64,000 bases of DNA, from the sequence record LC680885.1. The stretch is one strand, 5' to 3'. The notes below the pieces were generated by a model. The model was given only the letters and a program-made list of their open reading frames with translations, ran no database searches and was not told the origin of the DNA. This DNA is from Staphylococcus phage S6. Positions 5,502 through 64,000 of the stretch are shown here, piece after piece. The translations under genes were made by a program, and so were the position numbers. How positions within the stretch are numbered: the first letter of the stretch is position 1; each line of letters begins with the position of its first letter.

Positions 5502-5540
5502 CCCCAATACCATAGAAAAATGGTATTGGGGTATTTTATT
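5502..5540. terminator. bidirectional terminator hairpin
   Basis: CCCCAATACCAT...ATGGTATTGGGG stem, with an A-run on the left and a T-run on the right. It sits at the 3' end of the minus-strand ORF 5539-6252. Confidence 0.6.
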
Positions 5541-45930: not shown

Positions 45931-46182
45931 GTGGATAATAATAATGTAAGTAGTAAAATCAATAAAAATCAATTACAAACAGCAATGAATAATATGTCTA
46001 AAAATATAAATGGTATAAGTAGAAAGATAACAGGACAAGATAAAATTGATGAAATTAATAAACTTAAAAGAGAAAATGAAGAATTACATCGTTTTCTCTT
46101 TAAGATCTATCAAGATGATGAATTTGATAGGAAAGAATTGAAGAAAATTATATTTAAAGATGTAAATAAAAAATTTAAATAA
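45931..46182 (+). CDS. small coiled-coil protein (83 aa), C-terminus ...KDVNKKFK
   Basis: First member of a tandem small-ORF array. Its C-terminus is related to the K[ED]N[FL]K family. Confidence 0.4.
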   Translation: MDNNNVSSKINKNQLQTAMNNMSKNINGISRKITGQDKIDEINKLKRENEELHRFLFKIYQDDEFDRKELKKIIFKDVNKKFK

Positions 46183-46184
46183 GG

Positions 46185-46391
46185 GTGATTAATTTGAATT
46201 CAGATATCCGAATAGATAGAAGTGGCCTTTATATACAATCTAATGAGAAGCAGATGAAAGGACAAATTAAAATTATAGAAGAAAACAAAAAATTAAAAGA
46301 TTTTATTATTGATATTAAAAATAATGGTGGCTATGATGAAAAGGAATTAAATAAAATAGTAAATGAAATTGTTAAGGAGAATTTAAAATAA
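46185..46391 (+). CDS. small protein (68 aa) ending IVKENLK
   Basis: AAGGGTGATTAA RBS-like sequence. Conserved C-terminal tag. Confidence 0.45.
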   Translation: MINLNSDIRIDRSGLYIQSNEKQMKGQIKIIEENKKLKDFIIDIKNNGGYDEKELNKIVNEIVKENLK

Positions 46392-46857: not shown

Positions 46858-47136
46858 ATGGATAAAGAAATCGAAGATTTAGCAGGAAAAATAAATAATC
46901 TAGAAATTGACCTTAAAGGGATGAATTACAGATTATCTAATGATAAACAAGTTATTGATTTTGAAATAAATAAAATTAATGAATATATTAAATTTTTACA
47001 TGAAGAAAATCAAAGCATCAAAAAAGAAAATATGTTGTTAAAAGAAGCAATAGTGTCTATTTCTAAACATACAGAATTTAAGAATGATTATATAAATAAA
47101 CTGTCTAAAGAAATTGTTAAAGAAAATTTTAAATAA
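46858..47136 (+). CDS. small coiled-coil protein (92 aa) ending IVKENFK
   Basis: AGGAGTGATATAA RBS. Conserved C-terminal tag. Confidence 0.45.
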   Translation: MDKEIEDLAGKINNLEIDLKGMNYRLSNDKQVIDFEINKINEYIKFLHEENQSIKKENMLLKEAIVSISKHTEFKNDYINKLSKEIVKENFK

Positions 47137-47156: not shown

Positions 47157-47432
47157 TTGAATAATGAAAAAAGTTTAATTAAGCGTATGGAAGATTTAGA
47201 AGAACGTACTAGAATGAATGAAATTAAATTAAATACTATGAAAGATAATTATCATTATATAAATGACATTATAGGCACATTAATTAATAGAATAGAAAAT
47301 TCTAATCAAACTAATGAAAAGAAATTAGATGAAATAAGATTAGAGTTAGTCCGTCTTTCTAACGAATTAAATTCACATTCTGAAGTAACTAAAAAGTATC
47401 TAAAGAATTTTATCAAAGATAATCTTAAATAA
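47157..47432 (+). CDS. small coiled-coil protein (91 aa) ending FIKDNLK
   Basis: Conserved C-terminal tag. TTG start per the ORF track. Confidence 0.4.
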   Translation: MNNEKSLIKRMEDLEERTRMNEIKLNTMKDNYHYINDIIGTLINRIENSNQTNEKKLDEIRLELVRLSNELNSHSEVTKKYLKNFIKDNLK

Positions 47433-47729: not shown

Positions 47730-47957
47730 ATGAACTCAAATATTAATTTTAATGATAATGGATCATCTATGGATGAACTATATTCAAGAATGCAACTTAG
47801 AGCCGCTAAACAAGTAGAAAAAGATATATTGGGAGATAATGAAAAAGATTCCCTAGAAAAAGAAGTAAAAGAACTTAGAGAACTTGTTCTTGAAGTAGCT
47901 AAAAAGTATGATGTTAAAGAAATAAAAGAATATCTAGTTAGAAAAAATATGAAATAG
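47730..47957 (+). CDS. small coiled-coil protein (75 aa) ending LVRKNMK
   Basis: Tandem array member. Its C-terminus is a degenerate form of the tag. Confidence 0.4.
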   Translation: MNSNINFNDNGSSMDELYSRMQLRAAKQVEKDILGDNEKDSLEKEVKELRELVLEVAKKYDVKEIKEYLVRKNMK

Positions 47958-50617: not shown

Positions 50618-52168
50618 TTGGATATGGCAAAAGTAAAATACTCACAAACAAAATTATTGGTAAGAGGAGCATTTAGATCAGATGAAATTATCAACGTAGT
50701 TGGTGATGGCGGAATTGGTAAAACACAAATGATGAGAGATATTGCAGAAGAAGATAATATGAACTTCATTACTATCGCTGCAAATAACCTTAAAGAAGGG
50801 GAATTATCTTTACCAATGTTATCACAAAAAGATAATGAAGTTATCTATGCTCCAATGGATAAAATTAAGTTAGCTAATAGTCTTTTTGAGAGATATAAAG
50901 AGTATCAAAGAGAAGGTGGAAAACAATATTCACGTAAAGACCTTTCTTTAAAATCTGTTGATGAATTAAAAGAAATTTATGTGAAATTGACTGGTAAAGA
51001 TGTTGTTGATTATTATGAGGATACTCATGAAAACTATGTTAATAAAGTATTTAACAAAGCTAGAGTTAAAAATGTTAAATATAGTAAAAATGATTTAATG
51101 AAAAAATCATTTAATGAATTAAATGAAATCTTTGTAGAATTAACTGGTAAAGAATTAAGAGATAAAATTGGTAAAGGTTTCTATATCAAAGAAATTTTAG
51201 AAGCAGTTCCAAGACCTTATACTCTATTATTTATTGACGAAATTGGACGTACAGACCAACAAGTACAATCAGAGTTAATGAACTTCTTATTAGAACGTCA
51301 AGTAAATGGTTATCATTTACCACCTAACGTTAAGATTGCATTAGCACAAAACCCATCTTCAGACATGCCAGGATTTGAAGACTCAGAATACGCAGCAACT
51401 TCTATGGATAACGCAGTAAGTTCTCGTATTACATTTGTACACATGGTTCCTGATATTGAAAGTTGGGTAGACTTTGCTACTAAATATAAAGATGGTTCAG
51501 AAAAGCAAAATATTCATCCATCTATTGTTGAGTTCGTAACTGAAAAAGAAAGTACTGAATATTTATTCAGACCTCATAAAGAAGCTGGTAAAGACTTCAA
51601 TGATACTAACCCACGTTCTTGGGAAATGATTTCTAATATGTTATATGTATTAGAAGAAGATGATTTATTTAAATTCTCTAATAGTGAAGAAGAGAAACGT
51701 AAGAAGAAAGATACTTTACAATTCTTCACTGAAGGTAAAATTAATAGTGATTTAGCAAACTTATTTGTTAAATTCTATATTGAAAAACAAGCTAAATTAC
51801 CTCGTCCAAGTGATATTTTATTTGAATATGATAAAGGTAAAATGGTTCCTCGTAAAGAATTAGCTAAACAACACATTGAAGCTATTGAAAGTCAATCAAC
51901 TATTAGACAATTAACATTGAAAACTTCAATGATTAACTATCTTAAAAATAATCCTGATTTAGCTGAAGAACAAGTTATTCAAATTGCTGTAGAAGCTTTA
52001 TTATTAGGTAAAGTTGAAACTAATGCTACACCAATTAGATTAATTTCTAGACTTTCAGAATCTACTGAAGAGTCAGACCAAGAATTATATGAGAAATTCA
52101 CTGATAATGAATTATACAGTGATAAAGCATTTGCATTATACGAACAAATGGTAGGAAGCTTAGGATAA
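50618..52168 (+). CDS. MoxR-like AAA+ ATPase (516 aa)
   Basis: Walker A VVGDGGIGKT and Walker B LLFIDEIGR. A long insertion between them contains an internal tandem repeat of about 35 aa. GGAGAG RBS. Confidence 0.75.
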   Translation: MDMAKVKYSQTKLLVRGAFRSDEIINVVGDGGIGKTQMMRDIAEEDNMNFITIAANNLKEGELSLPMLSQKDNEVIYAPMDKIKLANSLFERYKEYQREGGKQYSRKDLSLKSVDELKEIYVKLTGKDVVDYYEDTHENYVNKVFNKARVKNVKYSKNDLMKKSFNELNEIFVELTGKELRDKIGKGFYIKEILEAVPRPYTLLFIDEIGRTDQQVQSELMNFLLERQVNGYHLPPNVKIALAQNPSSDMPGFEDSEYAATSMDNAVSSRITFVHMVPDIESWVDFATKYKDGSEKQNIHPSIVEFVTEKESTEYLFRPHKEAGKDFNDTNPRSWEMISNMLYVLEEDDLFKFSNSEEEKRKKKDTLQFFTEGKINSDLANLFVKFYIEKQAKLPRPSDILFEYDKGKMVPRKELAKQHIEAIESQSTIRQLTLKTSMINYLKNNPDLAEEQVIQIAVEALLLGKVETNATPIRLISRLSESTEESDQELYEKFTDNELYSDKAFALYEQMVGSLG

Positions 52169-52175
52169 CAATTAT

Positions 52176-52220
52176 AGATAATGGAGATTATTAGTCTCCA
52201 TTATCTTCATTTATTTTTTT
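52176..52220 (+). terminator. intrinsic terminator
   Basis: AGATAATGGAGA...TCTCCATTATCT stem followed by TCATTTATTTTTTT. Confidence 0.55.
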
Positions 52221-52232
52221 ATAATTAGGAGA

Positions 52233-54170
52233 GTGAATTTGATAATGAATGATAATAGAACAATTAAAGTAATTAGAAAAGAAATATTAGACGAAGTACA
52301 AGAATCGATTGTAAATGATAGACAGTTAGATAAAAAGAAATTAACGAAGCTTGGAGAAGAATTAATTGAAAATAGTATTTTTGTGTTGTATACTTCTGAT
52401 GTTGATATTTATGGAGTAATGTTAATGACTGTAGAAAAGATCATTGACATTGAAATTCCAGAACCAACTTTCTCAGTATTTGATGAAGAAAAAGGTTATA
52501 AGATTGGTATTAATCCAGTGTTATTAGCCACTATGGTTGATAAAGATGAAGAAATAGTTTCTATGTTCCTACATGAAGTTATCCATGTAGCTCATGGACA
52601 TTTAATTGAATTTAGAATGTTAAGAAATAAAGAAGATTCTCAATTAAAAATGTTAAGTCACTTAGGAATGGATTTATCAGTATTTGAAATTGAAGAAGAC
52701 TTCCAATTAGGTAAACGTGAAGCTAATACAAGTAAAAAAGTTTTACCTGAAATTGCACCTAATGTAGATAAGATTGAAAAGTATATTCAAGATAAATTTA
52801 ATAAAACAAATTTTAAATTAAATCATAATGATGCTTCTCACTATTATATTAAACAATTAGTAGATATCTACAAAGAAAATAATGAAGAAGATATGTTTGA
52901 TTCTATGGGTGAATCTATGCAAAATATGATTCAAGAATCTTCAGAAAAACAGAATGAACGTGATGAAGATTCATTGAATGAAGAAAATGAAATGTTGAAA
53001 GACATGTTAGAAGATTTAAAAGACATTGAAGATAAAAATGATTTATCTAGTAAATTAGAAGATAATAAACTAGAAGAAAACAAAGTTAATGATTTTGAAA
53101 ATAAAGCTCAAGATTATATGAATAAATTAGATGAAATGAATCAAAATGATGAAGAGAATAGTAATGATACTCAAAATCAGAAAAATATAGAAGAGAAAAT
53201 GAATGATTTACTAGATTCAATGAGAAATAATACTTCAGATAATAAATTTAATAGTAAAGATAATAATGATTTATCTGATAAAATACAAGAAATGAAATCA
53301 GATATATTAAATCAAATGATTCAGAATAATATGCAACAGGGTTCTCAAGGTATGCAAGGTGAAGATGGTGGAATGCAAGACGGACAAAATGTTTCTGATA
53401 TGGGAAGTAACATGACTATGTCATCTTCTTTAGATGGAAATTCTAAATATGCAGATAAATTTGATTCCAATCCTCTTGAAGGAGATGCTACAGAGGAAAG
53501 AATGAAAGACCAATTGTATGATTTATTAGAAAGTGCTAGTAGTAATAGTCGTGGTGATACACCTAATCATATTAAAGAACAAATTGAAATTCTAAAACGT
53601 AAACCTAAGATTAAATGGCAAGATTATCTTAAAGCTAAAGTAGGTAAAAAACGTTCTTCTAGTACGAAAACTATTTTAAGAAGAAATAGAAGACAACCTT
53701 ATCGTAGTGATGTACGTGGAACTTTACCTGGTAGAAAATTAGGTAAAGTATTTGCGGCTATTGACACTTCAGGTTCAATGGGTAGAAATGAAATTGAAGA
53801 AATTATTGCTGAATTGTATTATATTAGTAGTGATATGAAAATTGATTTAGTTTTATTATTCTTTTCAACTGGTGTTGAAGAAGTAGTTGAAGTAAACAGA
53901 CCAAATCAATTTAATGATTATGTAATGGGTCGTGGCGGAACTTACTTCAGTTCTGTATTTGATTTCTTAAATGAAACTGATAACAAACGTAAATATTCAG
54001 TATCAAAAGATGATACTCTATTATTCTTCTCAGATGGTTTTGGAGAACCTGAGGTGGAATACGGTGTATTAACTGATGTTGTTTGGGTTATTACTGAAGA
54101 TGAAAATAATCTTTCAGTTAGAGATCCAAAAGGTAAAGTACTAAAATTAGAAATAGATAATAAAAGATAA
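52233..54170 (+). CDS. DUF2201-like protein with N-terminal HExxH putative metallopeptidase domain and C-terminal VWA domain (645 aa)
   Basis: FLHEVIHVAHGH (HExxH). Acidic and Q/M-rich low-complexity linker. C-terminal MIDAS-like FAAIDTSGSMG. Partner of the upstream MoxR ATPase. Confidence 0.7.
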   Translation: MNLIMNDNRTIKVIRKEILDEVQESIVNDRQLDKKKLTKLGEELIENSIFVLYTSDVDIYGVMLMTVEKIIDIEIPEPTFSVFDEEKGYKIGINPVLLATMVDKDEEIVSMFLHEVIHVAHGHLIEFRMLRNKEDSQLKMLSHLGMDLSVFEIEEDFQLGKREANTSKKVLPEIAPNVDKIEKYIQDKFNKTNFKLNHNDASHYYIKQLVDIYKENNEEDMFDSMGESMQNMIQESSEKQNERDEDSLNEENEMLKDMLEDLKDIEDKNDLSSKLEDNKLEENKVNDFENKAQDYMNKLDEMNQNDEENSNDTQNQKNIEEKMNDLLDSMRNNTSDNKFNSKDNNDLSDKIQEMKSDILNQMIQNNMQQGSQGMQGEDGGMQDGQNVSDMGSNMTMSSSLDGNSKYADKFDSNPLEGDATEERMKDQLYDLLESASSNSRGDTPNHIKEQIEILKRKPKIKWQDYLKAKVGKKRSSSTKTILRRNRRQPYRSDVRGTLPGRKLGKVFAAIDTSGSMGRNEIEEIIAELYYISSDMKIDLVLLFFSTGVEEVVEVNRPNQFNDYVMGRGGTYFSSVFDFLNETDNKRKYSVSKDDTLLFFSDGFGEPEVEYGVLTDVVWVITEDENNLSVRDPKGKVLKLEIDNKR

Positions 54171-54247: not shown

Positions 54248-56311
54248 ATGTTAAAAAAGACTACAGAAAATGAATTAGAAAAGTTATTCAATGTCACTAT
54301 TTATAATGAAGAATTTTCTAATTTAAAACCTATGTATAATAGAAAAGATACTGAAACTAGAACTAAATTAAATGACAATCAAAATTCTAGAGTGTATGAG
54401 AATTTAATAAATTTCATTAATTATTCTAAAGCAGGAATGACACACATGTTTTTAACTCGTTCTAATAAATATAGAGATAAATATATTGATTTTCTAAGAA
54501 ATAGACTTGGTAAGGAAGATTTATTAGATGAGGTTGAATTTGAATATACAGATAGATATTTCAGATCTTTCATATATAATATAGATATAATTAGAAGAAG
54601 TGAATATCAAACACATCAATCTATAGAAAATGACTCTAAATTAGAAGATTCATTCTTATTAAGAAATGGAAATACAAATATAGATAGCTTTAAAACGGAT
54701 AATGGTTTATCTATAGAATTTTTAGATAAAGATGTAAAGAAAGATTTTTTAGATAAGAACAAACAAATTAGTTTAGAATCTTTGCTAGCTATCGATACGA
54801 TGGTGTCTAATTCATTAAGAAAGAAATGGTTAAAATCAATTGAAAAAGAAGAATTACCTGATATGAATATTATATTTAAAGAAGTTCCAGAAGTAGTAAT
54901 TATACTAGCAAACAGTATATATGAAAGATCAAATTTCAAATTATCATATGTAGATAGAAGTGTTATTAATATACACGCAGACGTTTCAGATGTTTTTGAA
55001 TCAATACTAACTTTAACTTCTAATTTTAATTATAAATTAATATTAGATTTAATAGATGAAGATTACTTAAGTAAAAATTTAAATCATTTCAAAGCTTCTG
55101 AATTTTCTTTATCTGACAATAATGACATTGATAATATATTTAGTATAATCGGAATTATTAAAAAACAAACGGACGTTATTAATAAATTTATAGAAAAAAG
55201 CAAATCAGATAATCTAGAAGACAATATTAATTTAATAATTAAAGAAAATGAAATAGATGATGACTTTGGAGAAATATTAAAAGTTTATATTGATAGTGTA
55301 TTATCTAAATTTAGAGAATATATTGAAGATGATACCAATATATTAAAAGATTCATCTAAGGTTTTAATAGGTGAAAATCTATTTGATTTCTTTATGAAAT
55401 TAGATGATCTCGAAATTTTAATGATTAGAAATATATACAGAGTTTTAGATAGTAATGTATATAATCCTGTAATCAGAGATGTTAAAGAATCACAAGAAAA
55501 AGTTATGAATGGAATAGTAGATTATTTTAAAAATAATACTAAAAAATTATCTTTAGATTTATCTAATATCGATATAAGTAGATTGAAAGATAGTTCTTTC
55601 ACATTATTAAACGATTTCATAACAAATGGAGAAGTAAGTAATCTTCGTATGAAACCTAATGAAGCTAATATAGAGTATTTCTATAAATTAAGTGTGGATA
55701 AAGAATTAAACCGTGACATATTAAATAGTAATATACAATATATGAAACAGGAATTATTAAAAGGTTTTAATGATGATTCTAAAATGACTTCGAATGCTAT
55801 TATTGAATTTGATAATTTTAATATTAATTTTGCTGTAATAGAAAATAATTCATATAATAATGAAATAGAAATAATGATGCAAGGAGTTACTTTTAAGAAA
55901 AAATTAACTGATGAGGATATTGCTACTATCTTTTTATATTCACATAAAGAAGTTAGTATATATCAAGACAAAAAATTAGTTATCATGGATAGAAATTATT
56001 TCTCTAGAAGAGGTATAAATAAATTTATAAATAATATGAATAATGTCTTCACTGATTTAGATGGAGAAAGTTTATCTAAATATATGTCTTTAATTTATAA
56101 TTTATTATCTTTATCAGATAATTCTTTTGAGGAAGATAAAGCAATTTATAATACTCTATATTACAATAAATTTGAATATATTAATAAAGAAAATGAGTTA
56201 AAAGTTGATAGTTATATTAATATGATTAATAATAAAGATGTAACAGATGATTTTAAAAAGAAATTTAAAAAGGTAAGATCTAAGTATTTAGTTTCTAGAA
56301 TATTTATTTAA
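54248..56311 (+). CDS. hypothetical protein (687 aa)
   Basis: AAAGGAG RBS. No recognisable motif. Confidence 0.5.
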   Translation: MLKKTTENELEKLFNVTIYNEEFSNLKPMYNRKDTETRTKLNDNQNSRVYENLINFINYSKAGMTHMFLTRSNKYRDKYIDFLRNRLGKEDLLDEVEFEYTDRYFRSFIYNIDIIRRSEYQTHQSIENDSKLEDSFLLRNGNTNIDSFKTDNGLSIEFLDKDVKKDFLDKNKQISLESLLAIDTMVSNSLRKKWLKSIEKEELPDMNIIFKEVPEVVIILANSIYERSNFKLSYVDRSVINIHADVSDVFESILTLTSNFNYKLILDLIDEDYLSKNLNHFKASEFSLSDNNDIDNIFSIIGIIKKQTDVINKFIEKSKSDNLEDNINLIIKENEIDDDFGEILKVYIDSVLSKFREYIEDDTNILKDSSKVLIGENLFDFFMKLDDLEILMIRNIYRVLDSNVYNPVIRDVKESQEKVMNGIVDYFKNNTKKLSLDLSNIDISRLKDSSFTLLNDFITNGEVSNLRMKPNEANIEYFYKLSVDKELNRDILNSNIQYMKQELLKGFNDDSKMTSNAIIEFDNFNINFAVIENNSYNNEIEIMMQGVTFKKKLTDEDIATIFLYSHKEVSIYQDKKLVIMDRNYFSRRGINKFINNMNNVFTDLDGESLSKYMSLIYNLLSLSDNSFEEDKAIYNTLYYNKFEYINKENELKVDSYINMINNKDVTDDFKKKFKKVRSKYLVSRIFI

Positions 56312-56324
56312 ATATATATTATAT

Positions 56325-56370
56325 AATTGAGTTGGTAATTGAACTTATCAACTCAATTTAATTTTTAATT
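56325..56370 (+). terminator. intrinsic terminator
   Basis: AATTGAGTTG...CAACTCAATT stem followed by TAATTTTTAAT. Confidence 0.5.
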
Positions 56371-56383
56371 AATAGGAGATGAA

Positions 56384-57571
56384 ATGGATATGAGTAAAGC
56401 AATAAAAGATTTATTTATCAATTACAATATATCTTATATTGAAGTTAATGAAGATCATGAACTTAATGAAATTGATAAAGAAGAATTATTAAAAATATTA
56501 GATTTTGATATTAAATTTGAAAAGGAAGAAATTTTAATAAGTGATAATATTAAAATAAATAATTTTAACGGTAATAAGTTAATAAATTTTGTATTTAATT
56601 ATTACTATACAGATAATGAATCACTAAAAGTATTTTTAAAAGACGTTATCAAAGATATTATTATGTATGGATATAAAGAAGATAGAAAAATAAGTCTAAA
56701 TATAAATCAATTACCTTTAGTATTTTATATAAATAAATTTTGTAAAGATAATGACATTAAAAATATTAAATTCTTTTATACTTTTAAAAATTCTTATGGG
56801 AATTTTTCATTTGGTTTATTAAAAGAAGAACATCTAGATGAATTTATTGATGATATAGAAGAAATAAGCAATAATAAGTTCTTCAATTTAAATAGTGGAT
56901 TATTAGATAATGACTTAATAATTAATGGAAATGAAAAGAAATTTATGAAGCTAATATCAAGTTTAATAGATTTAGATATGTCACATAAGGGTAATATATT
57001 TAAATTAAAAATGATAAATTATTTTTATAAATTATTTAATAGTTATATTAATAGTAAAGAAGATTTAGAATATGCAGATGAATTAATGAAGTTTAAAATA
57101 GATAGTCTTAAATATGGTGAATTTAATAAATATTATCTATATGAAAGATTTATAATCGGTATAGATAATTTATATGAACAAGAATTCTTAGGATATAATA
57201 CAAGAATGAATTATAATTATTTTATTGATAAAATACAAAAAATTGAAGATGAAGATGAAGTTAAATATATTTCAAAAATTGTTTTCTTTACATTAATAGA
57301 TGATATTTATAATGAAGCATCATTCTTTTTATCTTTTAGAACAGTCAATAAATATACTGATATTGCAGTTAAAGAAATATTGAAATTGATTGAAGACAAT
57401 CTTACAGAAAATCAGAAGAAACAATTTGTCAGAGAATATATGAGTATGAAAGATAGTTCATTTTATGCTTCAAATGAAAAATATAATCAAACATCTACAC
57501 TTGTTAAAATGTCTAAAGGGAAATTGAAAAAATTAATTATGAATGAAACAGTTAAAAAGACATTTATTTAA
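56384..57571 (+). CDS. hypothetical protein (395 aa)
   Basis: AGGAGATGAAATGG RBS. Confidence 0.5.
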   Translation: MDMSKAIKDLFINYNISYIEVNEDHELNEIDKEELLKILDFDIKFEKEEILISDNIKINNFNGNKLINFVFNYYYTDNESLKVFLKDVIKDIIMYGYKEDRKISLNINQLPLVFYINKFCKDNDIKNIKFFYTFKNSYGNFSFGLLKEEHLDEFIDDIEEISNNKFFNLNSGLLDNDLIINGNEKKFMKLISSLIDLDMSHKGNIFKLKMINYFYKLFNSYINSKEDLEYADELMKFKIDSLKYGEFNKYYLYERFIIGIDNLYEQEFLGYNTRMNYNYFIDKIQKIEDEDEVKYISKIVFFTLIDDIYNEASFFLSFRTVNKYTDIAVKEILKLIEDNLTENQKKQFVREYMSMKDSSFYASNEKYNQTSTLVKMSKGKLKKLIMNETVKKTFI

Positions 57572-57585
57572 AGGAGAATCAGCTT

Positions 57586-58299
57586 ATGTTAGTTAAAAAA
57601 GAAAAATTAAAGAATAGAAATGATATCAGAATAGATCATATTATAAGTATTAATTTAGATGATCCTTCTGCACTTAATATGGTTTCATTCCAATTATTAA
57701 TAGAAAGTAATATTCTGAGTTGTTATATTAATAACAACTTAGATACTACTTTATTTACTAAAAAAGAATTAGATAAATATAATAAATTCATAGATTTTGC
57801 TATTGATAATTTTGAATCAAATGGTTTATTTATAAATAAAAAACCAGATGAATTTCTAACTGGTTTAATAAGAAAAGCTTCTATTTCTAGATTATTTAAA
57901 ATGATCGATCCAATTGATAAAACTATCAGCAATGAAAATTTATTTATTACCAGATTAAAAAATATTAGACATAATATAAATGAAACTGATAGTAAAGATT
58001 TAGCTTACTTCTTATATACTAACTTTAGAGAAGATGTTCCGTTAGATAGATTAAAAGGTTTAATGTCTAACCCACATTTAACATCATTATTTGAGTATTT
58101 AATGAATGGTAATTTAATAATGGAGATTGATGAGCAATTGTTAAATAAATGGATTATGTTTATTGATTATGAAATAGATGGCCTTAAAGGATCCATTTAT
58201 CATAGATTAAGACATAGTTTAGTTAATGTAATCAATAAGTATAATAATATACAAGAAGCTAAAGGTTATTTAGGGTATGAAAGATTAGAATTAGAATAA
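57586..58299 (+). CDS. hypothetical protein (237 aa)
   Basis: AAGGAGAATCAGCTTATG RBS. Confidence 0.5.
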   Translation: MLVKKEKLKNRNDIRIDHIISINLDDPSALNMVSFQLLIESNILSCYINNNLDTTLFTKKELDKYNKFIDFAIDNFESNGLFINKKPDEFLTGLIRKASISRLFKMIDPIDKTISNENLFITRLKNIRHNINETDSKDLAYFLYTNFREDVPLDRLKGLMSNPHLTSLFEYLMNGNLIMEIDEQLLNKWIMFIDYEIDGLKGSIYHRLRHSLVNVINKYNNIQEAKGYLGYERLELE

Positions 58300-58332
58300 A
58301 CTTAAAAAGTTTAGTGAGAAGGGAAATTTTGA

Positions 58333-58992
58333 ATGAAAAAATTTAGAGATGAATTAATAAATCACTATACAAATTTATTGAGATTCAACGATGATTCTTT
58401 TTATTATAGATTAAAAATTAATTATTTGAATTTCGATTTCTCTAAAGATGTAAATTTAAGAAAAAATAATGTGTTTAAATTAAATTATAAAATCAGCTTT
58501 TTCCTATATTTTAAAATTTTAATAAAAGATTTTATTTCAAATAATTTAGATGAAAATGGTGTATCATTATTATTTTCAGATAGTGTTAATAATAATAATT
58601 TTATTTCTACATTATTTGTTAAGAATAATTCTGATATTGAATTGAAACTAGATTTGGGTGTGTATTATGAACTAGATGAAACTAAAATAGTTCTAATAGA
58701 TTTAAATGAAGAGTTTAATATAGAATATTCAGATGATAGTATTATAATTCATACAGATGAAGATAATTTTGAAAATGTAGTTTATTCTATTCTAAACAAA
58801 ATCAAATTCATCTTAGAAGGAAATATATATGCATTTAGCATATCTTTATTTGGCAATGGAAAAATAGGAGATAGTAATATATTTTATTTAGAAGAGATTG
58901 AAAATATATTTAACTCTAGAAAAAATAGTATAATTGAAGAACTTTCTGAAAGTGAAGTTAAAAAATATAAAATCAAAGAAGGGTTTAAATAG
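58333..58992 (+). CDS. hypothetical protein (219 aa), divergent member of the tandem paralog trio, ends KIKEGFK
   Basis: GAGAAGGGAAAT RBS. Its C-terminal tag is degenerate. Confidence 0.5.
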   Translation: MKKFRDELINHYTNLLRFNDDSFYYRLKINYLNFDFSKDVNLRKNNVFKLNYKISFFLYFKILIKDFISNNLDENGVSLLFSDSVNNNNFISTLFVKNNSDIELKLDLGVYYELDETKIVLIDLNEEFNIEYSDDSIIIHTDEDNFENVVYSILNKIKFILEGNIYAFSISLFGNGKIGDSNIFYLEEIENIFNSRKNSIIEELSESEVKKYKIKEGFK

Positions 58993-58994
58993 TA

Positions 58995-59606
58995 ATGGGT
59001 GATATTAAATTTAATGAAGAATATATGTCAGTTAAAATTTATAAGTTAATTAATTTGTTTGAGTTTCAACAAACAACTCGTAAAAGAGCATTTTCAAACC
59101 ATAATTCTGAAAGTGATGAAAATGAGCTTAATATGTATATAGGTAAAAATGACAATAAAAATATGATTGACATTTTTACTAGTTCTTTCTTTTTATACAA
59201 TCAATTTAAAGATGTTTGCAGTTTAGTATTTAACAATGGTAATACTATTATTGCAGAAATTGAGATATTAAATAAAAATAAATTGTCAATTGAAATTAAT
59301 TCAGAAATCTTAATTGATGATAGTGAAATTAAAAATTTCATTATCAAAAATGATTTTAGTGTAGGAGATGGATTCTTAGGCTTAATTATTGAAAATGATA
59401 AAGAAAAAATTCTTAAATTATTTTTAGAATCATTGTCTGATAGTTATTTTTGGATAAACAAGAAAAGAAGTTTAAATATATCTGATTCTAAAAAAATTAA
59501 ATTTAAAAAATATTTAGAAGATTTATATAAAATGAAAGATTTTTATAGTAAAGAAATCACTGAAAAAGAATATAAAGAAAATATAGTAAAAGATAATTTC
59601 AAATAA
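58995..59606 (+). CDS. hypothetical protein (203 aa), paralog, ends EKEYKENIVKDNFK
   Basis: Its C-terminal 30 aa closely match the next ORF. A TAATATAATCCCAATAC element follows it. Confidence 0.5.
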   Translation: MGDIKFNEEYMSVKIYKLINLFEFQQTTRKRAFSNHNSESDENELNMYIGKNDNKNMIDIFTSSFFLYNQFKDVCSLVFNNGNTIIAEIEILNKNKLSIEINSEILIDDSEIKNFIIKNDFSVGDGFLGLIIENDKEKILKLFLESLSDSYFWINKKRSLNISDSKKIKFKKYLEDLYKMKDFYSKEITEKEYKENIVKDNFK

Positions 59607-59697
59607 TATAATCCCAATACTTATTAATGTAATTAACAAATTTAAAAGATTAAAAATTATTTAGTTTACGAAAGATTAGAACTGGAGTGATATTTTA

Positions 59698-60339
59698 ATG
59701 GAAGAGATTTATCTTGATAAAAGATTTGATAGTGAATATTTTAAAATAAAAACTAGAGATATGATAAACTCTGTAAGATTTACTAAAGAACCAAACTTTG
59801 ATTTAATTATAAATAACCGTAAAGAAGAAAAAATTTTATATACTAAAAATGACAGTATTAGAAATTTATTTATTGAATCTTTTATCTTGTATTTAAATAA
59901 TATTACAGACGTTTATACATTTAGTATATCAATCAGTAATATTAAGTTAATTTTTAGTTTAAGATACAATCATACGAATAAAGATACCAAATTTTTAATT
60001 TATATAATAGAAAATGATAAATTTAATTATGAAAAAGATGTATCTGAATTAGAAAAAATATTAAATGACATATCTTCTTTAGTAAATAAAGAATACTATA
60101 TATCTAAAGGTAGTTTTATAATAGACTATTTAGATATAGAAAAAATTGATAAGATATTATATTACATTAATAAATTAGATGATCTTCGTATAATGTTAGA
60201 TGATTCAGAAAAAGAAGGAAAATCGTATTTAAGTTACAACTCTTTTCTTAAAGAACTTTATTTAAAAAGAAACCTATATTCTAAAAGTATTACTAAAAAG
60301 GAATATACTGATAATTTAGTTAAAGAAAATTTTAAATAA
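59698..60339 (+). CDS. hypothetical protein (213 aa), paralog, ends KKEYTDNLVKENFK
   Basis: Paralog of 58995-59606. The same downstream TAATATAATCCCAATAC element is here extended into a full hairpin. Confidence 0.5.
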   Translation: MEEIYLDKRFDSEYFKIKTRDMINSVRFTKEPNFDLIINNRKEEKILYTKNDSIRNLFIESFILYLNNITDVYTFSISISNIKLIFSLRYNHTNKDTKFLIYIIENDKFNYEKDVSELEKILNDISSLVNKEYYISKGSFIIDYLDIEKIDKILYYINKLDDLRIMLDDSEKEGKSYLSYNSFLKELYLKRNLYSKSITKKEYTDNLVKENFK

Positions 60340-60345
60340 TATAAT

Positions 60346-60400
60346 CCCAATACCTATTACATCAATAGGTATTGGGAAAAATTTAAATTATTTTTTATTT
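60346..60400. terminator. bidirectional terminator hairpin
   Basis: CCCAATACCTAT-tacatca-ATAGGTATTGGG with flanking A/T runs. It lies between convergent ORFs. Confidence 0.55.
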
Positions 60401-60691
60401 CATGCTGTCTAATTCAGCTAATTTTAATTTAGCTTTAGTTGCATATTTTTGACGAATTATGTCACGCCATTTTTTACGAGCACGAGCAGCTTTTTGATAT
60501 TTAAAATAGATTGGATCTTGAGCTTCTTTAGCTGCAACTAATGCTAATTGGTTTAATCTACGTTTACGTTTAGTACGTTCATCTAAACGCATGATATTTT
60601 GTTCACGTAAAAGAGCTTCATCAGTTGCTTGCATAATTTGCTCTTCTAGTGGAGTAATGTTATTTTTCATAATGGAAGATCTTCCTTTCAA
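60395..60691 (-). CDS. small highly basic protein (98 aa), possible nucleic-acid-binding protein
   Basis: K/R-rich (RKRRLNQ...KAARARKKWRDIIRQKYATKAK). It is a lone minus-strand gene with a GGAAGATCTTCC-type RBS. Confidence 0.45.
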   Translation of the reverse strand: MKGRSSIMKNNITPLEEQIMQATDEALLREQNIMRLDERTKRKRRLNQLALVAAKEAQDPIYFKYQKAARARKKWRDIIRQKYATKAKLKLAELDSMK

Positions 60692-60817
60692 TTATTTTTA
60701 TTATTCATTATAATGATTATAAGAAATATGTTTTATTTAAGAAATATGAAAAAATTATTGAACCATAATAACTTATCTTATATAAGTATGAATCTATAAG
60801 GAGATGAGAATTTATTT

Positions 60818-62752
60818 ATGTCTAATCAAGATAATAAATATGAACGTAAAAGAGCTATAACAGGATATTTAGAAAATTTAATCAAATTAATTAAAATAAG
60901 AAAACCTGATATTGATAATGAAAAGTTAATTAATACTTGTAGAGAGTATATTAAAAAACATGTAGATCCAGCTTTAATAGAAATATCTGGACAAAAAATG
61001 AATGTGGATACAACTTTAAGACAAATTATAGATAATAATTTAATTGTAACTGGTTCTGGTTCTATTTATCAGCCTCAATCACAAAGAAAAAATTTAAATG
61101 CAGACATGTTAAAAGACTTTATAGATTCTCGTAAAGTAGCTAAACATAATATGTTTATATATAAAGGTAAAGATGATGTTTTACATGATAAATATATGAA
61201 CGAACAAAAAACAATTAAGATCTTGGCTAACAGTTATTACGGTGCTATGATTCAAAAGAATAGTACATTCTATGATGCTAATTCAGGTCCAGCAACTACA
61301 TATAGTGGTGTTGATATTGTAACTACTTCAGCAATAGCTTTAGAAAGATTTATAGGTGGAAAAATATTCTTTATGAAAATTGATGAAATATATCATTATA
61401 TATTAAGAATAATCAATGAAGAATATAAAGATCATGATATTAAAATAAAAACAATTCCAACTGATATGGAAATTTTAGAAGGTTTAGTTTCTAATGTTGA
61501 AGAATCTTTTAGCGAAGAAGAATATCTTAAATTAGAAGAAGTATTTAGTAAATTAAGTCAAGAAGATAAAAATAAGGTATATTTCAAAAATAACTTATTT
61601 GGTTTAATTGATCATACTGATATATTTGAGAATAAAATTAGTAAAATGACTGGTAGAGAAGATTTCTTAGATCCGAACGAACCACCTGAAGATATGATTC
61701 CATTATTAGATGAATTATTTGAAATATTAAAAGATTGGGTTATATACAACTATCAAGATTATAATAGAATGTATAGAATGAATTACAAGAAACGTAGAAG
61801 TGTTCTCACAATTGACACAGATTCAAATTTCGTTCACTTAGATCCATTATACGAAAAAATGAAATCATTAAAACCTGAAGATTTTCCTTTAGCAGAAAAT
61901 GGTTTAGAAGATAAATTAGAAGAACGTGTAGGTAATATATCTATTATTAACTATCAAATAACTAAATTATTAGAATTATCTTACTATGGATTCTGTAAAG
62001 ATGTAGGATTAGAAGAAGAACATTTAGGTTTAATATCAATGAAAAATGAATTTTTACTTGATAAACAATTAACAACAGATAAAAAGAAAACTTATGCATC
62101 ATCAGTAATTCAACAAGAAGGTAATTTAATTCAACCTCCAGATTTAGATGTTAAAGGTATGGCTATTAGAAAAGTTAACACTAATAAACGTATTAGAGAA
62201 TTATTTACTGAAATATTACAAAAAGATATTTTAGAAAATAAAACTGGTGTAGATCGTATTAAGATAATACGTAAATTTAAAGATATTGAAGAAATGATTA
62301 AGAAATCATTAGATAATGGAGAAATTGAATTCTTAAAACCGTTTAAAGCTAATAATGCTGAAGTGTATAAAGATCCTTATTCTCAAATGGCTTATAGAGC
62401 TGCTTTAGCATGGAATATAATGTTCCCAGAAAAGGAAATAGCACTACCTGCTAAGATATTAGCAGTTAAATTAAATATTAGTACATTTGGAGATATTAAG
62501 AATAAGATAACTGATGAAAATACTTTAAATAGATTTAGAGAAGTATTTAAGAATGAAAGTTTAGTTAAAAATGGTTTAAATGTAATTGCAGTTGAAGGTA
62601 ATACAATTCCTGAAGAGTTTAGACCTTTTATTGACTATGATAGTATGATTGAAGATCATATTAAACCAGGTAAAGATATTATTGAATCTATAGGAGTTAG
62701 AGTATTGGAATCTTCAAATAGCTCATTTGTATCTAATATGATTAAATTCTAA
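60818..62752 (+). CDS. family B DNA polymerase, C-terminal (palm/fingers/thumb) fragment encoded as a separate gene
   Basis: Motif B KILANSYYGAM, motif C LTIDTDSNFVHL, and KKKTYA (KKRY-like). There is no exonuclease domain and no motif A. It has its own AAGGAGATGAG RBS and ATG. The upstream gene is on the opposite strand. Confidence 0.8.
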   Translation: MSNQDNKYERKRAITGYLENLIKLIKIRKPDIDNEKLINTCREYIKKHVDPALIEISGQKMNVDTTLRQIIDNNLIVTGSGSIYQPQSQRKNLNADMLKDFIDSRKVAKHNMFIYKGKDDVLHDKYMNEQKTIKILANSYYGAMIQKNSTFYDANSGPATTYSGVDIVTTSAIALERFIGGKIFFMKIDEIYHYILRIINEEYKDHDIKIKTIPTDMEILEGLVSNVEESFSEEEYLKLEEVFSKLSQEDKNKVYFKNNLFGLIDHTDIFENKISKMTGREDFLDPNEPPEDMIPLLDELFEILKDWVIYNYQDYNRMYRMNYKKRRSVLTIDTDSNFVHLDPLYEKMKSLKPEDFPLAENGLEDKLEERVGNISIINYQITKLLELSYYGFCKDVGLEEEHLGLISMKNEFLLDKQLTTDKKKTYASSVIQQEGNLIQPPDLDVKGMAIRKVNTNKRIRELFTEILQKDILENKTGVDRIKIIRKFKDIEEMIKKSLDNGEIEFLKPFKANNAEVYKDPYSQMAYRAALAWNIMFPEKEIALPAKILAVKLNISTFGDIKNKITDENTLNRFREVFKNESLVKNGLNVIAVEGNTIPEEFRPFIDYDSMIEDHIKPGKDIIESIGVRVLESSNSSFVSNMIKF

Positions 62753-62756
62753 ATAA

Positions 62757-63353
62757 TTGAATGAGGTATTTATTATGGAAAAATACTATAAATTTAATTT
62801 ATTTGAGTGCATACTAAAAAATATTGGTATGCACTCAGATAAATATGAAAATTTGATAAGTAATATAAATAAAAATTTTACATCTTTATATTTTTATGAC
62901 TATGAGATTAATAATAGTGATATAGATAAATTGATATATGATAACATTCAAAAACAATTAATTGATGATAGTTATTTTTTATTTGAAATCAATAATAAAG
63001 AAGAAAGACTATTAGTTGATTTTGAAAATAACCTTTTATATGATAAATATAATGAGAAAATAGGAATGGTTTCTTTAAATAGGATTACTTCTTCTAGAGT
63101 AAATTTATTTTCAGATTTTGAGAATAAATATAGAGATTTAATATTTATGGAAAAAGAAGATATAAAATATGAAAATTTAATTGATATGGGATTTAATATT
63201 GTTACTACTTTTGAAATTTCTACCGTATGTAAAAATAAAATAAATAATTTTAGTTACTTTGGTTTTGATATTAAAGATAATAAAAATAATCTATTAATTG
63301 AATGTGATGAAAAAGAATTCAAAATTAATAAAGTTAAGAATAATTTTATATAA
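62757..63353 (+). CDS. hypothetical protein (198 aa)
   Basis: ORF 4 nt after the polymerase stop. GAATGAGG RBS-like sequence. Confidence 0.45.
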   Translation: MNEVFIMEKYYKFNLFECILKNIGMHSDKYENLISNINKNFTSLYFYDYEINNSDIDKLIYDNIQKQLIDDSYFLFEINNKEERLLVDFENNLLYDKYNEKIGMVSLNRITSSRVNLFSDFENKYRDLIFMEKEDIKYENLIDMGFNIVTTFEISTVCKNKINNFSYFGFDIKDNKNNLLIECDEKEFKINKVKNNFI

Positions 63354-63402
63354 TTAGAAAAGTTAAAAGATAAATTTATTAATGATTATGAATAAGGAGA
63401 CT

Positions 63403-64000
63403 TTGAATTTTATGTATAAAGAAGATGAAATGAATACAGGTCATATAGTTGCTGATTGTGATGAAGTTTTAGTAAATATTTCCCCTAAGATAGTTCAATT
63501 AATGCATGAAGATTTTGATTATTACAGTCAATTCTTTAGACTATCTCCAGAGTATAATTACGGTACTCATTACAATACAGTTCTTAATCGTCCTGAATAT
63601 TATATTGACCAATGGTTAGTAAGAAAAGATGTTTATGAAAGATTTTCTGAAGATGAAGTTAATGAAGCTAGAAATAGGTTACAAAATGAAATTATATTTA
63701 AAAAAGATTTATACGATACATTAGAACCAACAAATTTAGCTAAAAGTTTATCATATACAATCAATACACCTTTAATGAATAGATTATCAATTGTAACTAA
63801 AACTTCTGATAATAACTTAAAATCTAAAGAGAAATTTTTGAAAACTTTATTTAGAGGAAGTATGGAAAAGGTTGATATTTATTATCTTGAATCAGATGAA
63901 AAGAAATCAGATGTAATTAATACATTAGGTTATGTTACTAGAATATATGAGGATGAAGTTAGTAATATTAAAGACATTATTATGAATTGTGATAATGTTA
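63403..64000 (+). CDS. partial ORF (runs off the window end), possible HAD-superfamily 5'(3')-deoxyribonucleotidase-like protein
   Basis: AAGGAGAC RBS. N-terminal HIVADCDEVLVN carries a DxDxV motif typical of HAD nucleotidases. Read from the sequence, not listed in the ORF track. Confidence 0.3.
   Translation, partial: MNFMYKEDEMNTGHIVADCDEVLVNISPKIVQLMHEDFDYYSQFFRLSPEYNYGTHYNTVLNRPEYYIDQWLVRKDVYERFSEDEVNEARNRLQNEIIFKKDLYDTLEPTNLAKSLSYTINTPLMNRLSIVTKTSDNNLKSKEKFLKTLFRGSMEKVDIYYLESDEKKSDVINTLGYVTRIYEDEVSNIKDIIMNCDNV

Follow-up and report, generated by a model that had tools for sequence, protein, structure and literature searches.

Genes and features of the locus

The window analysed here, a stretch of 64,000 nucleotides from Staphylococcus phage S6 (LC680885.1), is 99.5% identical to the Staphylococcus jumbo phage vB_SauM-UFV_DC4 (DC4), an AR9/PBS1-like uracil-DNA phage. 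As therapeutics against S. aureus, Staphylococcus jumbo phages are candidates whose genes mostly lack annotation. Three genes (ORF1–3) follow one another on the + strand, exactly where the first-pass annotation had placed them, in an operon running from 56384 to 60339. The features of this locus are as follows, ‘tag’ denoting throughout a shared C-terminal end.

56310–56329 (+): AR9-type early (virion RNA polymerase) promoter motif, AAATATATATTAT-N5-TG, an exact 13-mer plus TG
56384–57571 (+): first gene of the operon, 395 aa, with a tag-like end ...LIMNETVKKTFI
58333–58992 (+): ORF1, 219 aa, a soluble, acidic ORFan ending ...SESEVKKYKIKEGFK (KIKEGFK)
58939–58989 (+): codons of the variant tag of ORF1 (tag HMM E = 4e-6, residues 200–219)
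58995–59606 (+): ORF2, 203 aa, an ORFan ending ...ITEKEYKENIVKDNFK; tag codons 59553–59603
59604–59626 (+): half terminator, made up of the ORF2 stop codon, TATAAT and a left arm only (TAATATAATCCCAATACTTATTA), with no right arm and no hairpin
59698–60339 (+): ORF3, 213 aa, an ORFan ending ...ITKKEYTDNLVKENFK; tag codons 60286–60336
60345–60377 (either strand): bidirectional intrinsic terminator hairpin, TCCCAATACCTATT-loop-AATAGGTATTGGGA

Neither ORF1–3 nor their neighbours had any match in Pfam or PHROG. Orthologs of ORF1 occur in seven of nine Staphylococcus jumbo phages, and in LY01 and AH12 they end KINENFK or KINKNFK. ORF2, which carries an additional tag-like stretch internally (amino acids 105–121, 59307–59357), is present together with its half terminator only in DC4, PALS_2 and Logan contig L015, the last of which also keeps the terminator relic; both are absent from MarsHill and Madawaska, and the MarsHill indel spans 58992–59637 of the window. 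Among 5.8 billion proteins, homologs of ORF3 formed only two clusters (MarsHill and one Logan contig). A programmed −1 frameshift at TTTAAAT was rejected, as the heptamer falls outside the slippery frame of the ORF. The locus is adjoined by an AAA ATPase and DUF2201 pair, also found in AR9.

The three genes had been annotated as paralogs sharing a C-terminal K[ED]N[FL]K. Pairwise alignment upheld this for ORF2 and ORF3, which gave a BLASTP E value of 8e-9 across the C-terminal 67 aa (~39% identity, confined to the last third) and, with the tags removed, an hhalign E value of 0.0095 over a colinear N-terminal ~60 aa; we take them to be colinear, diverged paralogs whose similarity outside the tag is weak but detectable. 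ORF1 showed nothing significant against either beyond the tag. The ends divide in the same way: ORF2 and ORF3 carry the strict form (K[ED]NFK) and ORF1 the variant KEGFK. In a MAFFT alignment, ORF1–3 have an SFFLY patch in common, with no more for ORF1.

The promoter motif at 56310–56329 lies upstream of the operon, which would class as an early unit of the AR9/PBS1 type by this motif, with a consensus that is AR9’s own, built from 33 annotated AR9 early promoters. Tagged genes genome-wide sit in operons behind AR9-type early promoter motifs, from which, with a motif borrowed from AR9, we infer their early expression. The product of the first gene matches the tag HMM (E = 1e-4, residues 377–395), and its ending is kept in SA1, Machias, AH12 and LY01. 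The promoter overlaps a stem-loop at 56310–56358. An antisense early promoter was also considered, as TATATTAT lies on the minus strand over both stop codons; it was rejected, the 8-mer occurring 28 times in the window against 32 expected and lacking the extended AR9 consensus and the downstream TG.

The stop codons of ORF2 and ORF3 are both followed by TAATATAATCCCAATAC[T/C]TATTA and only the second copy reaches a full hairpin, as first annotated. This hairpin (60345–60377) has a 15-pair stem, 5 of the pairs being GC, and then a T-rich tail, the make-up of an intrinsic (rho-independent) terminator; the copy after ORF2, with its left arm only, lacks it. The hairpin separates the putatively early + strand operon from the convergent neighbour of ORF3, a virion protein gene at 60395–60691 (−). 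It is conserved in SA1, Machias, MarsHill, LY01 and AH12, and the same stem is reused at at least seven genome sites and also at 5503–5530 of the window.

The repeated 3′ element, with its hairpin after the second copy only, had been read as the signature of a tandem duplication that took in both gene and flank. The two flanks do agree at 22 of 23 positions; however, a simple old duplication would not leave such a contrast between these flanks and proteins that are ~39% identical in the last third alone. The junction tag-TAA-TATAAT-CCCAATACC... trails the last gene before the terminator: ORF1 in LY01 and AH12, ORF3 in MarsHill and in the window. We take the repeated 3′ DNA to be the conserved junction of the last array gene with a stereotyped terminator, and ORF2 to be an indel cassette bearing half of that terminator. 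Because the junction tracks the last gene, ORF2 is an indel and the stem is reused, gain and loss of cassettes at array ends would fit better than a single in-place duplication.

Sequence and frequency of the C-terminal tag

The five-residue tag of the first-pass annotation is real, although its true length is about 15–17 residues: [IL]-[TS]-[DE]-E-K-E-[IY]-K-x-Y-L-V-K-x-N-F-K-COOH, with a core summarised as [DT]-E-K-E-[IY]-K-x-Y-L-V-K-x-N-F-K (an example of the last 20 residues of a protein bearing it is FEEITDEKEIKKYLVKNNFK). Genome-wide counts were taken in the near-identical phage genome, where the module ends 36–44 of 272 ORFs, about one predicted protein in seven. These ORFs encode proteins of 68 to 687 aa and occupy ~12% of coding capacity; 36 form the HMM-significant core. 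Five strictly tagged proteins lie in the window; with ~40 tagged proteins genome-wide, the claim of at least five in two clusters understated the case. ORF1–3 are, as had been claimed, unlike the proteins of a small array 12 kb away that end in the same tag, and the two form separate clusters. The other tagged ORFs of the window are these.

45931–46182 (+): small ORF with a loose tag, 83 aa, ending ...RKELKKIIFKDVNKKFK
46185–46391 (+): small tagged ORF, 68 aa, ending ...EKELNKIVNEIVKENLK (IVKENLK)
46858–47136 (+): small tagged ORF, 92 aa, ending ...NDYINKLSKEIVKENFK (IVKENFK)
47157–47432 (+): small tagged ORF, 91 aa, ending ...VTKKYLKNFIKDNLK (FIKDNLK)
47730–47957 (+): small tagged ORF, 75 aa, ending ...DVKEIKEYLVRKNMK; terminal pentapeptide loose, full-tag match good (tag HMM E = 2e-7)
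62757–63353 (+): ORFan downstream of the DNA polymerase gene, 198 aa, ending ...CDEKEFKINKVKNNFI with a terminal I (tag HMM E = 1e-6); orthologs end KIKDNFI (MarsHill) and ETKKNFM (Machias)

Strict K[ED]N[FL]K C-termini end 5 of the 56 genes of the window against 0.001 expected, and none of its 111 non-gene ORFs; in 20,000 shuffles of the last 30 residues, no run gave more than one strict tag in the window. The whole near-identical genome holds 8 against 0.006 expected from composition—the comparison that the first-pass annotation had itself chosen as the one to overturn its claim, and which leaves that claim standing—and only 3 internal occurrences of the strict motif, against 1.8 expected. 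All significant matches of the tag HMM in the genome are exactly C-terminal, with none internal. Phenylalanine is penultimate (−2) in 56 of 272 ORFs (21%, against 5% in bulk) and in 40 of the 44 tagged proteins, no member running past the residue after it; lysine occupies −1 in 78 of 272 ORFs and valine −6 in 42 of 272. The terminal lysine is partly generic, because it is also ~2-fold enriched in untagged ORFs and in Bacillus phage AR9. This phage, our composition control (27.8% GC, equal amino-acid bias), showed no enrichment of phenylalanine at −2 and no C-terminal tag-HMM match.

The logo holds ~26 bits across the last 15 residues, against ~0 for untagged C-termini, and is somewhat circular in that the set of 44 was partly picked by eye. 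It ends [VI]-K-x-[NGST]-F-[KIR], with variants that include VKKNFI, VKKTFI and VKNNFK. In a 297-aa DC4 fusion protein, an internalised copy of the tag retains the helix part without the terminal V-x-N-x-F-K. The tag is real and non-random, and it is apparently an undescribed shared tail: no description of it appeared in the keyword-retrieved passages of the MarsHill, DC4 and PALS2 genome papers, nor in the retrieved passages of jumbo-phage reviews or of the Ung-inhibitor screen.

Lineage distribution and evolution of tagged proteins

Searches with the consensus (tblastn) placed the tag in all nine sequenced Staphylococcus jumbo phages, at 3–9 places each. Outside this clade, 50,697 phage records yielded no credible tblastn match, a Lactobacillus phage match being N-terminal in position and set aside as chance. 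The degenerate DNA pattern for VK[ED]NFK-stop matched three times in the window, whereas the whole of IMG/VR gave 25 singletons and GTDB genomes scattered ones; a match in a Staphylococcaceae MAG, a MarR regulator ending VKDNFK, was likewise dismissed as chance. The tag offers a sensitive marker for the Staphylococcus jumbo phage clade and an aid to gene calling, in which it can verify true stop positions and reveal fused genes.

AR9 homologs exist for 78 of 228 untagged ORFs and for none of the 44 tagged ones. Searching the 44 with hmmscan against Pfam-A gave no credible match (four unrelated single-member DUF matches, E 5e-4 to 7e-3), and PHROG likewise offered none that was credible (one unnamed PHROG). 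Stripped of the tag and compared by phmmer, jackhmmer and hhalign, the bodies proved related only within a few small local families or neighbouring pairs: ORF2 and ORF3, 196389 and 196954, and three further small families.

Between syntenic orthologs of Machias and DC4, tagged proteins have a median identity of 32%, against 66% in 39 untagged neighbours (p = 0.0012). In four such tagged pairs the body is 26–32% identical and the tag 47–71%; the bodies change at roughly twice the rate of their neighbours, and the tag persists. The ORF1–3 orthologs examined (MarsHill, Logan contig L015) show no change in the terminal pentapeptide. As these alignments have it, the tag is constrained independently of the body. 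Quickly changing bodies on a tail that stays fixed suggest a repertoire of effectors engaged in an arms race.

A profile of 32 tags found nothing significant among PDB sequences (best E 0.29, 9vx7, VDEEKLKDIIVKKNM); for the C-terminal region of an antitoxin (‘addiction module antidote’), too, there was no significant match of the tag profile to solved chains. LC-MS of purified DC4 virions detected 15 proteins, a shallow coverage, and none of the 15 is tagged, which is weak evidence (PMC10638138).

Possible functions of the tag

Structure prediction supports a helical tag. AlphaFold2 gave no usable fold for ORF3 (pLDDT 37), but the secondary structure of that model places a helix at residues 200–211, coinciding with the tag; the 92-aa product of 46858–47136 was modelled with pLDDT 96.5 as one helix (residues 2–91) with the tag as its C-terminal end, a model that is uninformative on tertiary structure.

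Our preferred reading, which we hold tentatively and at a probability of roughly 0.45, is that the tag is a common docking or assembly helix on lineage-specific early accessory proteins of Staphylococcus AR9/PBS1-like jumbo phages. Each genome would encode some 40 such proteins with the C-terminal module as their only common feature. Their genes would arise as tandem arrays, through local duplication and through gain and loss of cassettes at array ends bounded by the stereotyped terminator, ORF2 with its half terminator being one such cassette. The tag itself would be a self-capped helix, with an S/T-x-x-E N-cap, E/K salt bridges, an N/G C-cap and a terminal Phe-Lys carboxylate, and would link a varied and quickly changing set of effector bodies to a single common partner; candidates are a phage-encoded hub, a host hub or the tags of other family members. 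The tag groups ~40 ORFans in one class, such that one experiment could open up the whole group. If it is a docking or targeting signal, it would bring to light a hub for host takeover or for phage organisation in a jumbo phage lineage that forms no nucleus, and would provide a portable peptide to deliver cargo to that hub.

It is possible, although we incline against it, that the tag is a virus-encoded linear address code, by which ~15% of the proteome—fast-evolving early effectors—would be directed by a single C-terminal helix ending in Phe-Lys-COOH to one receptor, which might be a host hub, an unfoldase, or else a structure or compartment that the phage builds. If true, jumbo phages would gain their first described linear targeting or docking signal, and the poxvirus PRANC system a bacterial-virus counterpart.

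We consider it rather unlikely that the tag is a structural relic, the most constrained element of one diverged superfamily that tandem duplication built up from one ancestor or a few, with no shared external partner; the helix might then serve, for example, in the core or as a homo-oligomerisation or coiled-coil trigger segment. Tandem arrays and the detectable paralog neighbours listed above agree with such a history, as do the small members, predicted to be long single helices of which the tag is the end, and two hydrophobic stripes (I/Y/L and V/F) that inspection of the logo reveals on the tag and that fit a packed helix. However, a packed helix should co-diverge with its body, and here bodies that are 26–32% identical or undetectably similar bear tags at 47–71%; the tag is common to proteins of 68 to 687 aa, and phenylalanine at −2 in 40 of 44, with none longer, is unexpected of an internal structural helix. 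Common descent alone could explain the sharing of the tag, because several adjacent genes are true paralogs, although not why the tag alone is conserved.

Improbable to a further degree is a C-terminal degron or timer, recognised on early proteins by an AAA+ unfoldase or protease (host ClpXP or ClpCP, or a phage ATPase), so that tagged proteins are cleared, or delivered with a bound target, at the early-to-late switch. ClpX motifs are of a terminal -LAA type or consist of a basic run with a terminal aliphatic residue (RRKKAI, LRVVK). The strictly C-terminal tag has a basic-hydrophobic end (VKKNFI, VKKTFI, VKNNFK) that recalls the MuA-type ClpX C-motif 2 (RRKKAI) and the ClpX-binding tail of SspB (LRVVK), in the case of VKKNFI and VKKTFI in style only; all tagged genes lie in putative early operons, and none of their products is in the 15-protein virion set. 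Inspection of the logo against ClpX C-motif 1, C-motif 2 and the SspB XB tail found neither an Ala-Ala end nor an RRKK run; the tag's sequence matches none of the defined ClpX motifs. With fifteen conserved residues, a capped helix among them, the tag also exceeds the needs of known degrons, and the AAA ATPase and DUF2201 pair near the locus is present in AR9, which is without the tag.

Selection on the tag acts on the protein and not on the DNA, because codon usage at its K, F, V, N and E positions equals genome-wide usage and the DNA downstream of most tagged genes is unrelated between genes. A nucleic-acid element (recombination joints at which cassettes are shuffled, termination or processing signals) with the amino-acid motif as its by-product is very improbable and, as primary cause, is largely refuted by this codon analysis, even though the tag-TAA-TATAAT-terminator junction is present twice and remains attached to the terminator no matter which gene comes last, indels fall at gene-unit boundaries, the pattern GTNAARGANAAYTTYAARTAA occurs three times in the window, and biased codon usage makes the tag-coding ends near-identical ~20-mers, a possible source of microhomology. 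Synonymous and conservative changes run all along the tag (AAG GAG AAT TTA, AAA GAT AAT CTT, GTT/GTA/GTG), conservation follows physicochemical classes (V/I, K/R, N/G/S/T, F/L/M), and true gene ends, read in frame, are the only places where the motif appears. Chance in an AT-rich proteome in which K, N, E, D, F and L are all abundant and terminal lysine is enriched even in untagged ORFs and AR9 has a negligible likelihood, being ruled out by expectation (0.001–0.006 against 5–8 observed), by 20,000 local shuffles of which none attained the observed count, and by AR9, which has equal composition and no tag.

The docking reading has a close analogue in poxviruses, whose ankyrin-repeat/PRANC proteins are encoded by rapidly evolving, tandem, early accessory genes and dock variable bodies to a single hub through a C-terminal module; PRANC is an F-box-like domain of ~40–50 aa that binds eukaryotic Skp1. 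As in these families, we see a large DNA virus, variable bodies, a short conserved C-terminal module and gene content that varies between close strains. Unlike PRANC, the tag is a predicted single helix of ~15 residues in a bacteriophage; hmmscan of the 44 tagged proteins against Pfam-A gave no C-terminal match to PRANC/F-box models.

Free-carboxyl C-terminal peptides include PTS1 (-SKL), KDEL, proteasomal HbYX, the SspB ClpX-binding tail and the ssrA/MuA ClpX degrons; each class sits on many unrelated proteins and has one receptor. The tag resembles such peptides in being strictly C-terminal on unrelated bodies, with a penultimate or terminal hydrophobic/basic signature, whereas its consensus ...VK-x-N-F-K after a capped helix matches none of them. 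The PTS1 pattern [SAC]-[KRH]-[LM]-COOH is not that of a tag ending N-F-K or a variant, so that the analogy is functional only, and the tag logo has no Q-L-x-L-F pattern of the sliding-clamp type (QL[SD]LF-like).

Three phage systems also bear comparison. PeSL (promoter-early/stem-loop) cassettes of T4-type phages, reportedly described by Arbiol and colleagues in 2010, likewise involve ORFan early genes in plastic regions, stereotyped stem-loops and presence that varies between relatives; unlike PeSL, an intergenic DNA motif, the dominant conserved element here is coding and selected at the protein level. The capsid-targeting sequence (CTS) of T4 sits at the N-terminus of internal proteins that are packaged in the virion, and the prohead protease removes it. 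Tag and CTS are both short peptides common to several unrelated phage proteins, with a single destination in the case of the CTS; in contrast, our tag is C-terminal and absent from the shallow DC4 virion proteome. Bacillus phage G carries ~35 zinc-ribbon copies in a lineage-specific expansion (PMC7824862), and there too a jumbo-phage genome holds dozens of copies of one small module; that expansion multiplied a recognisable domain, whereas only the terminal helix is common here and the bodies are ORFans.

Extent of the C-terminal module

The first-pass annotation had reported three adjacent genes sharing a C-terminal tag, and all three were recovered:

58333-58992, +: ORF1, 219 aa, ending KIKEGFK
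58995-59606, +: ORF2, 203 aa, ending IVKDNFK
59698-60339, +: ORF3, 213 aa, ending LVKENFK

The tag had also been placed on small ORFs 12 kb upstream, as borne out by their endings IVKENLK, IVKENFK and FIKDNLK. The strict core pentapeptide, K[ED]N[FL]K, closes five of the 56 window genes (0.001 expected) and none of the 111 non-gene ORFs of the window; shuffling the last 30 residues of the window genes gave more than one strict tag in 0 of 20,000 shuffles.

Genome-scale tests were run on the full genome of Staphylococcus phage vB_SauM-UFV_DC4 (DC4; 263 kb, 272 ORFs), which is 99.5% identical to the window across 56000-63500, with the full genome of Bacillus phage AR9 as control. A scan for an excess of the motif at C-termini, a test set beforehand, returned eight strict ends against 0.006 expected, and the pentapeptide occurred internally only three times. 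Of the 272 ORFs, 78 end in K, 56 have F next to last (21%, versus 5.1% in bulk), 57 have K at −5 and 42 have V at −6. When the C-termini of all DC4 ORFs were listed, about 44 proved to end in a module of ~15–17 residues, [IL]-[TS]-[DE]-E-K-E-[IY]-K-x-Y-L-V-K-x-[NGST]-F-[KIR], with a sequence logo carrying ~26 bits across the last 15 positions and almost none for untagged C-termini. A hidden Markov model (HMM) built from the last 20 residues matched 36 DC4 proteins at E < 1e-3, with all significant matches reaching the C-terminus or stopping at most four residues short of it, and none lying internally. As the set of 44 was partly picked by eye, we give the number of tagged ORFs as a range, 36–44 of 272; the earlier figure of at least five tagged proteins in two clusters was thus right about the sharing and far too low in extent.

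The window is ~25% G+C. AR9, at 27.8% G+C and with amino-acid frequencies close to those of DC4, showed no enrichment of F at −2 and no C-terminal match to the tag HMM. By this composition control, AT richness is not the origin of the tag. Terminal K is in ~2-fold excess even without the tag (63 of 314 AR9 ORFs, 48 of 228 untagged DC4 ORFs), apparently through a general effect of stop context or of composition in these AT-rich phages.

Tagged proteins, their operons and distribution

Tagged proteins range from 68 to 687 aa and form a virus multigene family with a common terminal module. Once the tag was cut off, the bodies were linked by BLASTP and phmmer into three small local families and no more, to which a shallow profile-profile comparison added one adjacent pair (196389~196954). 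Pfam and PHROGs scans of all 44 proteins found no credible match, the weak single-member matches being to four unrelated DUFs (Pfam) and one unnamed PHROG. None of the 44 has an AR9 homolog, versus 78 of the 228 untagged DC4 ORFs, and none is among the 15 proteins detected in a shallow LC-MS proteome of DC4 virions (PMC10638138). The products of ORF1–3 are predicted to be soluble and mildly acidic.

All tagged genes lie on the + strand, in operons 3′ of an AR9-type early promoter motif, AAATATATATTAT-N5-TG, derived from 33 annotated AR9 promoters. Around ORF1–3 the features are:

56310-56329, +: putative early promoter motif AAATATATATTAT-N5-TG, upstream of the operon
56384-60339, +: ORF1–3 operon, ending at the terminator 60345-60377

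This promoter motif overlaps a 14-bp stem-loop (56325-56358), an arrangement resembling the PeSL elements of T4-type phages.

Across the syntenic array of Staphylococcus phage Machias and DC4, tagged orthologs are 28–76% identical (median 32%), against a median of 66% for 39 untagged neighbours (Mann-Whitney p = 0.0012). In four Machias–DC4 pairs the bodies share 26–32% identity and the last 17 residues 47–71%. The terminal pentapeptide of ORF1–3 orthologs is unchanged in MarsHill and a Logan contig, and conserved 687-aa and 395-aa proteins keep tag-like ends in SA1, Machias, AH12 and LY01. Directly upstream of the genes for these two proteins, window 50618-54170 encodes a 516-aa AAA ATPase next to a 645-aa DUF2201 VWA/metallopeptidase-like protein, a pair also adjacent in AR9 (gp028-gp029); the ATPase has been reported from DC4 virions.

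The window region has near relatives in PALS_2, MarsHill, Madawaska and LY01 and farther ones in AH12, PB50, SA1 and Machias. These Staphylococcus jumbo phages are AR9-like, with uracil-DNA and two multisubunit RNA polymerases; a 2026 review gives chimallin as absent from such phages, which are accordingly not nucleus-forming. With tblastn, the consensus tag matched all nine Staphylococcus jumbo phages at 3–9 places each and nothing credible beyond them among 50,697 phage records, a Lactobacillus phage match being rejected for its position near the N-terminus. Written as degenerate DNA, V-K-[ED]-N-F-K-stop occurred three times in the 64-kb window (0 expected) and only 25 times, each singly, in IMG/VR; GTDB genomes gave a scatter of single matches, among them a MarR regulator judged a chance match.

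Possible role of the tag

By its sequence the tag looks like a helix complete in itself: it opens with an S/T-x-x-E capping box, has Glu and Lys paired at i/i+4, and closes with an Asn/Gly C-cap, beyond which come Phe and a single final residue. It is predicted to be helical in AF2 models of both ORF3 (pLDDT 37) and a 92-aa member (pLDDT 96.5). Because the tag is conserved while bodies diverge beyond recognition, always stops a single residue past Phe and sits on proteins of very different size, the constraint would seem to lie outside each protein. Such external constraint favours a common docking or assembly peptide, a reading to which we give a probability of about 0.45. A profile search with the tag among solved structures turned up no significant match and no partner. 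A single peptide organises ~15% of an otherwise dark proteome and is directly testable.

That the tag is no more than a structural relic of a single superfamily, as the few families linked by their bodies might suggest, is less likely, since most bodies have diverged far while the tag has been kept; a C-terminal degron or timer is less probable again. Selection acts on the peptide, since tag codons vary synonymously (AAG GAG AAT TTA AAA; AAA GAT AAT CTT AAA; GTT/GTA/GTG), DNA 3′ of tagged genes is unrelated (ORF2/ORF3 excepted), codon choice at the conserved K, F, V, N and E residues equals that of the genome as a whole and substitutions stay within physicochemical classes; against this, an element read at the nucleic-acid level, for which the ORF2/ORF3 flank might speak, is highly improbable. 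Chance is a negligible explanation beside the terminal excess.

The closest analogues in logic include poxvirus ANK/PRANC families and C-terminal sorting or docking peptides (PTS1, HbYX, SspB/ssrA), with T4 PeSL cassettes an analogue for DNA architecture; by logo and Pfam, the defining motifs of all of these were absent. Keyword searches of the MarsHill, DC4 and PALS2 genome papers, jumbo-phage reviews and an Ung-inhibitor screen of these phages found no description of the tag.

Kinship and turnover at the array end

ORF1–3 had been described as tandem paralogs. This holds for ORF2 and ORF3, which share 39% identity over the C-terminal 67 aa (BLASTP, E 8e-9) and, tags removed, a weak colinear match (E 0.0095) across ~60 aa at the N-terminus, and which appear to be diverged paralogs; ORF1 showed no significant similarity to either in the comparisons run. 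A tag-like internal stretch of ORF2, DDSEIKNFIIKNDFS (aa 105-121, window 59307-59357; HMM i-E about 0.01–0.04), is a hint that two tagged units may have fused to form ORF2. A 297-aa DC4 protein outside the window (DC4 171866-172759; L004:21866-22756) clearly consists of two paralog units fused head-to-tail: unit 1 ends ...EEVTEEEYKKYKGELI, directly before the Met of unit 2, its internal tag retaining the helix part and lacking the terminal V-x-N-x-F-K.

As first noted, ORF2 and ORF3 are both followed by TAATATAATCCCAATAC[T/C]TATTA, of which the ORF3 copy alone folds into a hairpin. The hairpin stem, ATCCCAATACC/GGTATTGGGAT, makes up a stereotyped terminator present at seven or more genome sites, often between convergent genes:

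5503-5530 and 60346-60376 (window): stem ATCCCAATACC/GGTATTGGGAT, in full (AT)CCCAATACC...GGTATTGGG(AT)
15824, 29004, 61160, 92151, 114488 and 225354 (DC4 record): same stem

The hairpin could serve as a terminator specific to the phage RNAP, or it could be a mobile-like element present in repeated copies.

A tandem duplication copying the gene with its 3′ flank had been proposed. This is borne out in part only, the picture not being that of a single in-place event with uniform divergence thereafter: the flank (22/23 identical) is far better conserved than the ORF2/ORF3 proteins. The junction ...AAT TTY AAA TAA TATAAT CCCAATACC... follows whichever gene closes the array (ORF1 in LY01 and AH12; ORF3 in MarsHill, the window and the Logan contig); presence is patchy among nine Staphylococcus jumbo phages (ORF1 in 7, ORF3 in 4, ORF2 in 2); and MarsHill lacks exactly window 58992-59637, that is, ORF2 and the half terminator (left arm only, 59604-59626). 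Together with the flank conservation, these patterns argue for cassette turnover, and the array end appears to have been shaped by cassette gain and loss or recombination, for which near-identical tag-coding ends could supply microhomology. SA1 has nothing at this position, and in Machias a 70-aa membrane ORF (L007:3857-4069), unrelated to ORF1–3, replaces them. That ORF and one in AH12 at the same position (L018:2099-2413), likewise unrelated to ORF1–3, are proline/asparagine-rich with NPxxPxSP repeats and a C-terminal transmembrane segment, marking the position as a gene-turnover hot spot.

Sharing the terminator with ORF3 is a convergent neighbour (60395-60691, −) encoding a small, very basic 98-aa virion structural protein (phrog_26909), MS-detected in DC4 virions and listed in the SA1 annotation as homologous to PBS1 gp41. 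Beyond it, 60818-62752 encodes the C-terminal half of a divergent family-B DNA polymerase, the sole recognisable match of Bacillus phages AR9 and PBS1 to 56000-63500. Its insertion status is variable: the gene is one intact ORF in the window, annotated as joined from 2–3 pieces in MarsHill and Machias, and split in the Logan contig (L015) by a 255-aa ORF with weak DUF723/DUF4379 matches, which could be a mobile-element gene.
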